DNA of 20,000 nucleotides from an uncultured virus (IMG/VR IMGVR_UViG_3300008120_009089) (lineage: Duplodnaviria; Heunggongvirae; Uroviricota; Caudoviricetes), in IMG/VR virus record IMGVR_UViG_3300008120_009089; one strand, 5' to 3'. Under the pieces are notes generated by a model. The model searched no databases and was not told the DNA's origin. It saw nothing but the letters and a program-made list of their open reading frames with translations. Position 1 is the first letter of the stretch. Every line of letters begins with the position of its first letter. This document shows positions 1,799 through 5,111 of the stretch, piece by piece. The position numbers were made by a program, and so were the translations under genes.

Positions 1799-2287
1799 TT
1801 AATAATTAAATTTTAACATTTTCTTTATTGTTGCGGAGTTGTAAAACTCATAAGTAACATTCTTATCAACTACTTTGTGTATTTCTAATTTTTCAACTTC
1901 TAATTTAAAGTTATCAACATATTCAACTAATTCTCTAAGAGATTTAGCATAAGATGCTGATGGTACCCAATAATCCGGAAACTTATCTAAAAATTTATCA
2001 ACAGCTGTATCGAATGTTTTCTTTCTAATAAGTAAATATTCATTCACTTTAGAAGATTTGTTTGTTAAGATTTCAATGATGTAATTATTAAATTTGAAAA
2101 TTAAGTTATCAGTTTCAATAACTTTTAAAAGTCCAATAACAAGAGCATCTTGTTCAGAGATAGAAACTTCAGTATTTTCCCTTAAAATTCTCTCAGCTTC
2201 TTTATCGGAACCACCTAAAATGTAATAAACGTAAGTGTCCCATAAACATCTTTTAACTATATCTTCTGGATATATATTTATAGTCAT
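1799..2287 (-). CDS. Hypothetical protein, first gene of the grpE-dnaJ unit
   Basis: 162 aa ORF preceded by a TAAACT-N17-TATAAT motif; ends 4 nt before grpE start. Confidence 0.8.
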   Translation of the reverse strand: MTINIYPEDIVKRCLWDTYVYYILGGSDKEAERILRENTEVSISEQDALVIGLLKVIETDNLIFKFNNYIIEILTNKSSKVNEYLLIRKKTFDTAVDKFLDKFPDYWVPSASYAKSLRELVEYVDNFKLEVEKLEIHKVVDKNVTYEFYNSATIKKMLKFNY

Positions 2288-2308
2288 AATATTATAATAT
2301 TTTTCTTT

Positions 2309-2337
2309 ATTATAGAAACATACATATATAAAGTTTA
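2309..2337 (-). promoter_or_regulatory. Putative promoter TAAACT-N17-TATAAT
   Basis: Minus strand reads TAAACT TTATATATGTATGTTTC TATAAT, 21 nt before the ATG at 2287; same architecture at 4468 and 13844. Confidence 0.6.
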
Positions 2338-2369
2338 TAATGTAATATATAACACAAAAAAATTAAAGA

Positions 2370-2546
2370 ATGAAGCATAAAATCAAAACACCAAACGGAG
2401 TAGGAACTCTAGAGAAAATATACGCTAGTGAATTGGGGTTTTTAATGGTTAGAGTTTACTTTCCTGATACAAAATCATTTATAACATATAATGTTGATAA
2501 GTTAGAAAATTTTTTAGAAAATACACAATTAAAATTAGAAAAGTAG
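2370..2546 (+). CDS. Small hypothetical protein (58 aa)
   Basis: Below ORF-track cutoff: MKHKIKTPNGVGTLEKIYASELGFLMVRVYFPDTKSFITYNVDKLENFLENTQLKLEK; preceded by TAATATATA at 2343 and an A-rich leader. Confidence 0.7.
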   Translation: MKHKIKTPNGVGTLEKIYASELGFLMVRVYFPDTKSFITYNVDKLENFLENTQLKLEK

Positions 2547-2554
2547 TATATTTG
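2547..2554 (+). promoter_or_regulatory. Bacteroidota-type -7 promoter box TAnnTTTG
   Basis: TATATTTG 18 nt upstream of the ligase remnant ATG at 2573. Confidence 0.55.
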
Positions 2555-2572
2555 TGGAAAATTTAAAAAGTA

Positions 2573-2639
2573 ATGGAACAGACAAAATACAATCGGACAT
2601 ATCATCTACCTTGGTCACCAGGATCAACAAATGATGATA
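2573..2639 (+). pseudogene. Truncated 5' remnant of the RNA ligase gene
   Basis: Translates MEQTKYNRTYHLPWSPGSTNDD; 15/18 aa identical to KYPRTYHLPFSPGTTNDD at the start of ORF 3642..4286; similarity ends at 2639 and the frame then closes within the antisense endonuclease ORF. Confidence 0.88.
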
Positions 2640-3555
2640 ATTTATTTAAAACTAAAGAAGTTAAATCTTTAGTTTTTTTTATTTCACTTTCCCATATGTA
2701 TATCACAAAATAACCTATTTCTTCCGCTTTTATCCTTTTATCTCTATCTTTATCCCATATATCAGATACTTTCTTATAACCACCTGGGAATTTAATACTT
2801 TCATCTATATTATAGATCTCTGGATTACAATGCCAATAATCACCATTTACTTCAATTAAAATGTTAGTATTCACTAACCTAAAATCAAATAATTTACCCT
2901 TTAGTGGGAATTGAGTTGTATATGATATTGATAGATTGTTAAGAACTTCTGATATTTTGGTTTCTAAATTAGATTTGCCATTATAATTAAATATTTTATT
3001 TTTTTGTTCATCATTTAAATTGTTCCAATATTTTTTAATTGATTCTTTTTGTTTACACTTTCTTATTTCATTTTCATCATCAGTTAAATTGTTCCAAGCA
3101 AAATTATTATCTATTATCCATTTTTTAAATTCATTATTTTTGAATATGTTATCAACACCATAATTTTTCATAAATGTGTCTGATTTTTTATTTTTAATAT
3201 CCAATACCTTTGACACATTATCAACTCCATACTTCTCCATACAAGTTTTTTTATACTTAATAGATGATATTAATTTTGAACTTTCTGAAATACTCCTCTT
3301 AGGTATTGAATAATACTCCAAAAGAAATATAAAAGATTTAAAATCGATATTAAAATCATTTTTAATATCAACTAGACTTTTTAAATTCTCAACATAATTT
3401 AATGTAATAACCTCTCTTTTTGAAATATGTGGAAAATTTTTTTGAATAAACATAAATTTTATTTCTCTTTTATCATTTGTAGTTTTTAATTTACAATGAT
3501 ATATGTGTGGGTTATTAAAAACCACAACATCACAAAAGGGACACTTTCTAATCAT
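2602..3555 (-). CDS. Putative free-standing homing endonuclease (C-terminal Vsr/DUF559-like PD-(D/E)xK-fold nuclease; N-terminal CxxC..HxxxC and KYGVDN repeats)
   Basis: FDFRLVNTNILIEVNGDYWHCNP...WDKDRDKRIKAEEIGYFVIYIWESEI fits the Vsr/DUF559/EDxHD-like pattern; tandem (K/N)YGVDN(V/I)xK repeats; CPFC..HIYHC. Confidence 0.8.
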   Translation of the reverse strand: MIRKCPFCDVVVFNNPHIYHCKLKTTNDKREIKFMFIQKNFPHISKREVITLNYVENLKSLVDIKNDFNIDFKSFIFLLEYYSIPKRSISESSKLISSIKYKKTCMEKYGVDNVSKVLDIKNKKSDTFMKNYGVDNIFKNNEFKKWIIDNNFAWNNLTDDENEIRKCKQKESIKKYWNNLNDEQKNKIFNYNGKSNLETKISEVLNNLSISYTTQFPLKGKLFDFRLVNTNILIEVNGDYWHCNPEIYNIDESIKFPGGYKKVSDIWDKDRDKRIKAEEIGYFVIYIWESEIKKTKDLTSLVLNKLSSFVDPGDQGR

Positions 3556-3559
3556 ACAT

Positions 3560-3569
3560 TATATATTAA
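3560..3569 (-). promoter_or_regulatory. TTAATATATA box (putative phage late promoter)
   Basis: Exact 10-mer 4 nt upstream of the endonuclease ATG; identical copies at 6798, 10101, 12234, 13777. Confidence 0.6.
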
Positions 3570-3602
3570 AGTGAAAAAGTTGTTTTTTACCATTTTTTCA
3601 GT

Positions 3603-3610
3603 TATATTTG
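3603..3610 (+). promoter_or_regulatory. Bacteroidota-type -7 promoter box TAnnTTTG
   Basis: TATATTTG 31 nt upstream of the intact ligase ATG; same 8-mer as upstream of the remnant. Confidence 0.55.
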
Positions 3611-3641
3611 TAACATAAACAATATTTTTGAATATCTTATC

Positions 3642-4286
3642 ATGAGTAAATACCCAAGAACATATCATTTACCTTTCTCACCCGGTACTACCAATGATGA
3701 TAGAATATCTGAGAGTGTTAAATCTATTTTGGGTATTGATATTATCATAACCGAAAAGTTAGATGGATCTAACTCATCGATGATAAATGAGGGTGTCTTT
3801 GCTAGATCACATATAGATTTTTCTAAAAATCCATGGGATAATGAAGTTAGACAACTACACGAAATAAAAGTAAAAGGTAATTTAGAAGATGATGTTTTTT
3901 TATTCGGTGAGAATATGGAAGGCATTCATTCAATAGAATATACAAATTTAAAATCATACTTTTATTTATTTGGTGTTAGAGATAATAACATCTGGACACC
4001 TTGGAGTGTGGTTGAAGAATATTCTTACTTATTGGATTTACCACTTGTACCAGTTTTATTTAAAGGTATTGTAAATACCGAAAAAGAATTAAAAGACTTA
4101 GTTATGGGTTTTGTAACAGAACAATCTGAATTAGGTGGATCAAGAGAAGGTATTGTCGTAAGAAATGCTGGTGTGTTTCATAATGATAATTTCTCGGATA
4201 ATGTAATGAAATGGGTTAGAAAAGGTCATGTTCAGACAGATGAACATTGGACCAAGAATTGGAAAAAATCAAATATAAATTATTAA
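3642..4286 (+). CDS. ATP-dependent RNA ligase family protein (single nucleotidyltransferase domain)
   Basis: Motif I TEKLDGSN, motif III LFGEN, IIIa FYLFGV, IV EGIVVR, V KWVR; N-terminal KYPRTYHLPFSPG. Confidence 0.88.
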   Translation: MSKYPRTYHLPFSPGTTNDDRISESVKSILGIDIIITEKLDGSNSSMINEGVFARSHIDFSKNPWDNEVRQLHEIKVKGNLEDDVFLFGENMEGIHSIEYTNLKSYFYLFGVRDNNIWTPWSVVEEYSYLLDLPLVPVLFKGIVNTEKELKDLVMGFVTEQSELGGSREGIVVRNAGVFHNDNFSDNVMKWVRKGHVQTDEHWTKNWKKSNINY

Positions 4287-4287
4287 T

Positions 4288-4470
4288 ATGACAATAGAAG
4301 AAAAAATTAAACTTAACAAAGAAATTAGATCTTATAAAGGTGATAATCAATTTATCATTTCTTTACAGAAAGCTCTGAAAGGTAATTATGTTCAAAAAGT
4401 AGAACATAATGGTAAGAATGTTAAAATTCTTTCTGATAAACAATACGAAGCAGCTAAGATAAATTTCTAA
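4288..4470 (+). CDS. Small hypothetical protein
   Basis: 60 aa ORF starting 1 nt after the ligase stop. Confidence 0.7.
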   Translation: MTIEEKIKLNKEIRSYKGDNQFIISLQKALKGNYVQKVEHNGKNVKILSDKQYEAAKINF

Positions 4471-4496
4471 ACATTATATTCTACTCAGTATATAAT
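4468..4496 (+). promoter_or_regulatory. Putative promoter TAAACA-N17-TATAAT
   Basis: TAAACA TTATATTCTACTCAGTA TATAAT, only 4 nt before the ATG at 4501. Confidence 0.45.
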
Positions 4497-4500
4497 CAAT

Positions 4501-4698
4501 ATGGAAAATTATATTGAAGATATGAAATTATTAGGAACCGTACACTCTCACGGTTCAATAGATGAATATTACCATGTAAGAATTAAAGATGGTAAACAAA
4601 CAACATTTGAATTTAGAGTTGTTAAACATACAAAACAGAGAGTGAGTAGTTATAAAATAGATCAATCAGATCTACCAAAATCAATAGAACTTCAATGA
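4501..4698 (+). CDS. Small hypothetical protein
   Basis: 65 aa ORF, ATGA overlap with the next gene. Confidence 0.7.
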   Translation: MENYIEDMKLLGTVHSHGSIDEYYHVRIKDGKQTTFEFRVVKHTKQRVSSYKIDQSDLPKSIELQ

Positions 4699-5111
4699 GA
4701 GTAGGATTTACATGTTCTTGCTTTGACCTTTTTCATGCTGGTCATATTATGATGTTGAAAGAAGCTAAATCAATTTGCGATTATTTAATTGTTGGATTAC
4801 AAACAGATCCTACAATAGATAGACCAGAAAAGAATAAACCAATACAAAGTGTTGTTGAAAGATTTATTCAATTAGAGGCTTGTAAATATGTAGATGAAGT
4901 TGTTGTTTACGCAACTGAAAAAGACTTACTAGATATTCTTTATTCTTATCCGATTAATGTTAGAATAGTTGGAGAAGAATATAAAGATAAAGACTTCACA
5001 GGTAAAGATCTATCACACATAGAAATGTATTACAACTCTAGAAAACATTCATTCTCAACAACCGAACTAAGAGGTAGAGTTATCGAAAGATATAAAAGTG
5101 ATAAAAAATAA
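4695..5111 (+). CDS. Cytidylyltransferase family protein (glycerol-3-phosphate cytidylyltransferase TagD-like)
   Basis: FDLFHAGH (HxGH), DYLIVGLQTD, KYVDEVV, SFSTTELR. Confidence 0.9.
   Translation: MRVGFTCSCFDLFHAGHIMMLKEAKSICDYLIVGLQTDPTIDRPEKNKPIQSVVERFIQLEACKYVDEVVVYATEKDLLDILYSYPINVRIVGEEYKDKDFTGKDLSHIEMYYNSRKHSFSTTELRGRVIERYKSDKK

Follow-up and report, generated by a model that had tools for sequence, protein, structure and literature searches.

A free-standing homing endonuclease of the Vsr-like (EDxHD) type, encoded head-to-head with a phage RNA ligase gene, is in our judgement likely to spread by intronless homing with one-sided repair. This reading, drawn from sequence comparison, concerns a locus in a 20,000-nt stretch of DNA from an uncultured virus of the Caudoviricetes (IMG/VR record IMGVR_UViG_3300008120_009089), hereafter the window. 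There, a promoter box and the first 22 codons of an RNA ligase gene break off inside the 3′ end of an antisense endonuclease ORF, beyond which a second promoter box and an intact ligase gene follow (Table 1). A first-pass annotation had proposed a non-splicing endonuclease cassette that brings along a replacement promoter and ligase 5′ end, and this proposal is supported.

The boxes, the 22-codon stub, the antisense ORF and the intact ligase hold with all their coordinates and counts, including the identity of the two ligase 5′ ends at 42/55 nucleotides and 15/18 residues and their five synonymous codon differences, to which three non-synonymous ones can be added. The first 45 residues of the ligase recover the stub at an E-value of 4e-11 within the locus, more than expected by chance. 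A chimeric assembly of two co-occurring phage strains, conceivable for AT-rich DNA of metagenomic origin, is of negligible probability: the identical arrangement is repeated in three IMG/VR contigs (L001-L003), and a bridging contig from an independent study (run X5) covers positions 1800-2698 with no differences, reaching 59 bases past the junction, so the locus is not an assembly artefact.

Table 1. Features of the endonuclease locus (positions in the window)
Feature	Positions	Strand	Basis
Resident upstream gene, 58 aa, no family	2370..2546	+	Left flank, outside the cassette
Resident promoter -7 box TATATTTG, left behind	2547..2554	+	Motif/ORF-start enrichment; Bacteroidetes consensus
Stub of resident (empty-type) RNA ligase, 22 codons + 1 base	2573..2639	+	Peptide exact in 12/71 ligases (among the matches listed)
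Left non-homologous junction, at most 2 shared bases, ligase codon 20/21 to endonuclease codon L306	2638..2639	.	Inferred from the sequence and the native endonuclease ends of L010, L006 and L192
Vsr-like/EDxHD endonuclease, 317 aa	2602..3555	-	Profile, fold, catalytic residues
Endonuclease promoter-like motif TAATATATA, 13 nt before ATG	3560..3568	-	Motif/ORF-start enrichment
Divergent promoter spacer, 86 nt, carried with the cassette	3556..3641	.	67-86 nt in 9/9 measured loci
Replacement promoter -7 box TATATTTG	3603..3610	+	Motif/ORF-start enrichment
Incoming ligase head, codons 1 to ~66, carrier type (S43/N63/D66)	3642..3839	+	Boundary approximate
Candidate target, codons 39-50 (KLDG adenylation motif plus the codons after it)	3756..3791	+	Inferred
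Rest of RNA ligase, probably resident	3840..4286	+	blastn continuity and nt identity; modest support

The intact ligase (3642-4286) has 214 residues, matches PF09414 (E = 5.5e-25) and carries the predicted adenylation-domain KxDG lysine; K39 is invariant, and relatives have E, S, G or Q at position 43, which in the window is S (3768-3770). Other kinds of mobile element fit the locus poorly. A group I or II intron is rejected, the best Rfam match in 2000-4800 being no better than E 0.94 and the downstream ligase being complete with its own start. Against an intein or split intein, the stub runs straight into the endonuclease end, and the ligase aligns full length without an insertion. Against an insertion sequence, there is no transposase family, and the two copies, 42/55 identical, belong to different allele types. 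One kilobase downstream of the ligase lies a second RNA ligase of another family (PF09511; 5265-6488).

The antisense ORF had been called Vsr-like, which its predicted structure bears out. A model built from an 87-row alignment (pLDDT 90.4, against 38.5 for a single-sequence model) has I-Bth0305I (3R3P) as its best Foldseek match (E = 1.7e-4, TM-score 0.77 on the target), with Vsr (1CW0, 1VSR) also among the top matches, and 3R3P is the best match of the 87-homolog profile (E = 1.9e-6). The domain layout comprises a Cys/His N-terminus, a helical DUF7487 region, which is the only Pfam match, and a C-terminal nuclease (E198, D224, H242, D270); the PHROGs matches are homing-endonuclease families. 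D224, H242 and D270 align with D196, H213 and D222 of I-Bth0305I, the first two of which are Ala in the crystal construct (available text of PMC3239194), while E198, H242 and D270 are invariant and D224 nearly so among the 87 homologs. By modeled fold and intact catalytic residues, the protein is predicted to belong to the EDxHD/Vsr-like family. Its orthologs stop shortly past a conserved 'L-x-x-K-L/I' stretch; the window endonuclease runs 11 residues further, and this tail (307-317), unstructured in the model, is read from the antisense of the stub, placing the junction inside the endonuclease ORF.

One carrier, L192, retains just the nuclease end of the gene (3242-3488), and another, L124, has a shortened C-terminus. 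The endonuclease at L186:2920-3933 resembles L010 and L192 in its nuclease end (94-97% nt identity) and differs in its N-terminal part (37% overall), an apparent domain swap judging by these identities. A sister subfamily (40-42% identity; L139:2995-3963 and L232:4995-5918) lies head-to-head with a large gene without Pfam match in two phages, one of 735 kb; we take this large gene to be tail-sheath-like. In L139, the sister endonuclease also directly precedes an E-type ligase. Of the distinct distant homologs examined, 46/54 are co-directional with both neighbours, unlike the window endonuclease with its head-to-head geometry, and several (in L049-L120) are followed by ORFs whose starts resemble, by eye, C-terminal intein halves.

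Linkage of the endonuclease to the ligase is consistent: all 7 close endonuclease-profile matches in viral contigs, which represent 4 lineages, face this RNA ligase head-to-head. Loci were added by a metagenome scan (best 80 of 205 matches), giving 83 loci at 53% identity or more and, among the matches listed, 71 distinct full ligases. Of these, 57 are non-carriers and 9 are carriers; one more has a 37% homolog, and 4 come with too short an upstream sequence. Dropped before counting were L040, L196, L210, L212 and L219 (fragmentary or frameshifted), L168 (mis-picked start) and loci below 53% identity. Beyond the endonuclease the genes vary, with at least 6 different neighbours among the 9 distinct carrier ligases, and the promoter spacer is alike in sequence among carriers. 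Presence of the endonuclease is optional, as seen when L158 is set against L005 and L159, L010 against L011 and L168, L124 against L177, and the window against L149, L150 and L154.

Carriers also share a ligase allele. Among the matches listed, S43, N63 and D66 occur in 9/9 carriers, and S43 occurs in 18/57 non-carriers (Fisher test, P = 1.3e-4, uncorrected for kinship and leaving out L186, with its 37% homolog, and the 4 loci with <300 nt upstream). The carrier signature, KLDG-S-N at codons 43-66, lies outside the duplicated 22 codons; over the 71 ligases, among the matches listed, carrier-associated columns begin at codon 28 and peak at 43-66, with none in codons 1-27. The two versions are sharply distinct, since 155 distinct N-terminal sequences comprise 40 with S43, N63 and D66, 113 with E43 and neither of the other two, and 2 mixed. 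S43 alleles without an endonuclease fit marker conversion or endonuclease loss, but an ancient allele maintained independently of any nuclease would suit them equally well.

Unrelated endonucleases occupy the same head-to-head position in other loci (L009:3215-3955, L128:2968-3891, L160:357-1097, L172:3280-3969, L174:573-1268, L179:127-1026 and L189:2036-2737); a Pfam scan of six of them found GIY-YIG in 3/6 and NUMOD3 in 5/6. The ligases beside these endonucleases often show differences in codons 8-16, where a second target region might lie.

The first-pass annotation had left open whether the 5′ end or the whole ligase came with the element. Matched carrier and empty pairs answer this, as their differences are confined to codons 1 to ~80-100, with most of the later bins at 90-100% identity; the moving unit is, as had been guessed, the endonuclease with the promoter and the 5′ part of the ligase. 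Per 10 codons, L158 and L005 are 57-87% identical in nucleotides over codons 1-80 and 80-100% after, L006 and L009 are 37-90% and then 90-100% identical, and L192 and L169 switch near codon 100. Two recombinants narrow the tract: L160, without a window-type endonuclease, is L009-like in codons 1-40 and L006-like in codons 41-80, and would be the product expected if the target tract alone were converted; P0019 combines S43 with E-type residues at 63 and 66. The shared core therefore falls around codons 41-50, just after the adenylation lysine. A tree of codons 41-80 requires a single change of the S/E label (SH-aLRT 99), and still one when codon 43 is left out (71 rows), whereas a tree of codons 101-212 requires 20 against a shuffled mean of 21.8 (68 rows), with at least 7 of the 20 changes forced by starred branches. 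The ends of the tract vary, because codons 1-40 and 81-100 carry a partial S/E signal (10 changes each).

In the window ligase, the 10 best matches of codons 38-66 are all of the S type, and the 3 best matches of codons 67-100 are empty alleles that share the downstream gene. The blastn match to the empty alleles L149, L150 and L165 runs unbroken through the ligase and the next gene, and there is therefore no displaced ligase 3′ half. Mean nucleotide identity of the remainder is 0.76 to syntenic empty alleles and 0.71 to carriers, and in the tree of codons 101-212 the window row falls in no starred group; with this modest support, the remainder is probably resident. A carrier-specific polymorphism and an apparent co-conversion tract in the neighbouring conserved gene are thus both found in the sequence comparisons.

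The same exchanges could have arisen passively, the endonuclease and the S head forming an old linked module moved by ordinary recombination, with another target or none and a stub junction due to chance. S43 is common without the endonuclease, the genomes are highly mosaic around the ligase, and the GIY-YIG endonucleases that occupy this position could account for some of the exchanges. However, the same short tract beside the endonuclease has been exchanged in many backgrounds, E43 occurs in no carrier, and the catalytic residues are invariant or almost so throughout the 87 homologs, and we regard passive hitch-hiking as unlikely.

The stub is probably a piece of the interrupted older allele, as had been proposed: its 18-residue peptide is found exactly, among the matches listed, in ligases that are all of the E43/empty type and include empty alleles with the gene order of the window. 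Homologs of the 58-aa upstream gene directly precede empty ligase alleles in L149, L150, L151, L154 and L156, and a viral-contig search with this gene matched the window lineage only. Of the empty alleles that had been predicted, syntenic ones exist (L149, L150 and L154, which have the two upstream genes and the downstream one), but they start with MSKY, and the expected MEQTKY start was not found: a pattern search of viral contigs gave 4 matches, 3 in the window lineage and 1 unrelated, and among the matches listed the start occurs in 0/120 ligase proteins. No close empty relative of the window lineage was found among the examined loci, in which the best ligase has ~75% amino acid identity; identities of 70-80% are therefore the basis on which the stub and the 3′ ligase are assigned to the resident allele. 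Among the contigs of four runs, none linked the stub to a ligase body; as contigs drop rare variants, this is no evidence of absence.

The stub has also been read as the normal signature of the element, which would insert at ligase codon 21, duplicate the gene start and gain immunity by recoding or by a split site. Within the window lineage the anatomy does suit this, and the junction would abolish any site that extended across codon 21. However, a coding stub is present in 0/6 other carriers with a readable flank (L161 and L207, which end short of the endonuclease 3′ end, are excluded), and the antisense-ligase tail in 0/34 other top-ranked endonuclease homologs among the matches listed, so that neither a duplicated 5′ end nor flanking by duplicated ligase ends is general. 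Nor does the divergence of the 22 codons point to recoding: over 861 pairs of empty alleles the median is likewise 42/55, those that agree fully in their peptide show 1-14 synonymous codon differences (66 pairs), the carrier L010 has 17/18 residues in common with the stub, and the carrier-associated columns lie further downstream. Insertion with recoding is accordingly an improbable account. Less probable again, and largely refuted, is a decayed tandem ligase duplicate into which the endonuclease was inserted later. Two ligase starts in direct orientation would suit it, but the stub stops abruptly within the last codons of the endonuclease, no ligase sequence beyond the stub and the intact gene was found in the locus, and the stub resembles empty alleles from other phages more closely (up to 49/55) than it does the intact ligase beside it (42/55).

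A scan of the 83 loci for the stub gave, outside the window lineage, short and weak matches only (nt E 3.9e-4 or worse); the best of these, in L010 and L015, lies inside an intact tRNA-synthetase-like ORF, has no protein-level match and was taken as chance. The one other sharp junction is that of L158, which is identical at every base to the empty allele L005 until the resident -7 box begins, and continues from there with the endonuclease; the junction lies 28 nt inside the endonuclease ORF and, relative to the ligase start, ~90 bases further upstream than that of the window. In the window and L158 alike, the junction thus falls inside the end of the endonuclease ORF. L192, L010 and L124 are similar but loosely aligned in AT-rich sequence, and L006 yielded no junction. 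The duplication does not mark an element of a new kind; it is a rare scar confined to the window lineage, while the underlying head-swapping cassette is general.

We therefore return to intronless homing with one-sided repair, which would proceed as follows. In a mixed infection, the endonuclease would cut an E43-type ligase allele near KLDG, and at the downstream end homologous repair in the ligase would copy the resistant S43 head of the donor, the promoter spacer and the endonuclease. Were the upstream end to anneal in the ligase head, the S tract alone would be converted and the endonuclease not inherited, an outcome that would explain S alleles without an endonuclease. If it did not anneal, and unrelated genes lay upstream of the ligase, an illegitimate join would be made at the endonuclease 3′ end. 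Such a join would usually fall in or just before the resident promoter and leave nothing visible; in the window it would have fallen at ligase codon 21, leaving a promoter, 22 codons and the read-through tail of the endonuclease. Splicing is unnecessary because the ligase is whole, and any upstream junction leaves a whole ligase because the cassette holds a promoter and start.

A more ambitious proposal, about which we lean somewhat towards doubt, is that one-sided homing is the routine entry into new genomes, with homology in the ligase alone, carriage of a bidirectional promoter and the first third of the gene, and a join at the element's own 3′ end. If true, this would amount to homing by gene-head swapping that does not depend on synteny, the GIY-YIG endonucleases would be competitors for the same gene head, and both would keep two ancient versions of the active-site segment of the ligase circulating in huge phages. 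The locus offers a natural record of a free-standing homing endonuclease entering non-syntenic genomes, a step that had been put forward on the basis of laboratory crosses in T4, and of an endonuclease-linked tract that reshuffles the active-site segment of a phage enzyme in many backgrounds. For an uncharacterised EDxHD subfamily with ~30 close orthologs, it also narrows the predicted target to about codons 39-50 of the E43 allele.

Several known systems share parts of this behaviour. Free-standing endonucleases cut far from their own genes and convert markers, being inherited only if repair passes them, and where homology is one-sided, repair can end at microhomology, as documented for T4 td homing (PMC2988022, available text). 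Intronless homing by T4 SegF, SegG and MobE likewise involves a free-standing gene beside its target gene, without splicing, a site hundreds of bases away, co-conversion and marker exclusion (same text of PMC2988022). However, these T4 enzymes need homology on both flanks, which was not found for the window element, whose far flank differs among carriers and whose junction lies at the endonuclease 3′ end; the nuclease family, the head-to-head geometry and the RNA ligase as putative target are further differences. The T4 td result of 1999 (via PMC2988022) resembles the present case in having homology on one side and a microhomology junction on the other, but it was obtained in the laboratory with an intron, whereas here the outcomes are natural and repeated, and the gene is free-standing.

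I-Bth0305I and the EDxHD family have the same C-terminal Vsr-like domain and catalytic positions, and an N-terminal region presumed to bind DNA (PMC3239194, PMC2677866, as far as their available text goes). Described members reside in group I introns, between split-intein halves or gene halves, or free-standing (PMC2677866, in part); unlike those in introns and split genes, the window subfamily leaves its host gene whole. In fungal mitochondria (Allomyces atp6, Ophiostoma rps3, Phlebia cox2/atp6), a foreign piece of the host gene also arrives and a displaced duplicate is left, but the inserts described in the accessible portions of PMC4019555 and PMC6279837 replace the 3′ end and carry co-directional LAGLIDADG or GIY-YIG genes, whereas the window cassette replaces the promoter and 5′ end. 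The HEG-islands of ICP1-like phages have endonucleases at exchange boundaries and interchangeable classes at one position, with whole genes or operons as cargo rather than a third of one gene (PMC10448857, available text). The available portions of PMC12724721 and PMC8393795 hold nothing further on endonuclease interchange at one position, and a literature search covering few subscription papers and no supplements found no report of phage endonucleases replacing the promoter and 5′ end of a gene, or of any directed at an RNA ligase.

Other scars and fragments were seen among the loci. An 88-nt 3′ remnant of a 252-aa gene, whole in L006, lies beside a GIY-YIG-like gene at L009:3106-3189 and is, from its sequence, seemingly another illegitimate-junction scar. 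At L040:3989-4160, a ligase without an endonuclease has nearly its whole middle deleted, its 5′ 25 codons being joined to the 3′ end, and at L026:6549-6600 a second, 14-codon fragment of a ligase start lies ~1.8 kb downstream of an intact distant ligase.

The window sits in a 76.9-kb contig with chaperone genes, among which GrpE was identified, PrkA-type genes and genes of nucleotide metabolism; the names DnaJ, DnaK and PrkA are labels we take to apply. A scan of this contig for duplicated gene ends found paralog motifs only and no second cassette of this kind. The closest ligases in phage records belong to genomes of 634,780 bp (70% identity) and 642,428 bp (69%), in which the gene order around the ligase is that of the window and the ligase is of the E type without an endonuclease; from these ligases and their matching neighbourhood, the window is taken as a fragment of a huge phage. 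Sequencing runs containing the stretch are mostly freshwater. The motif TATATTTG stands 8-60 nt before an ORF start at 9/24 of its sites in the contig, against ~4% expected, and agrees with the Bacteroidetes -7 consensus TANNTTTG (available text of PMC6847099), which suggests, without showing, the host group. The promoter-like motif TAATATATA stands 8-60 nt before ORF starts at 25/30 of its sites, 12 of them at exactly 13 nt. In the window, the leftover promoter and the 46-aa junk ORF into which the stub frame (2573-2638) continues, ending at 2713, are together (2547-2713) antisense to the endonuclease 3′ end and might damp expression of the endonuclease.
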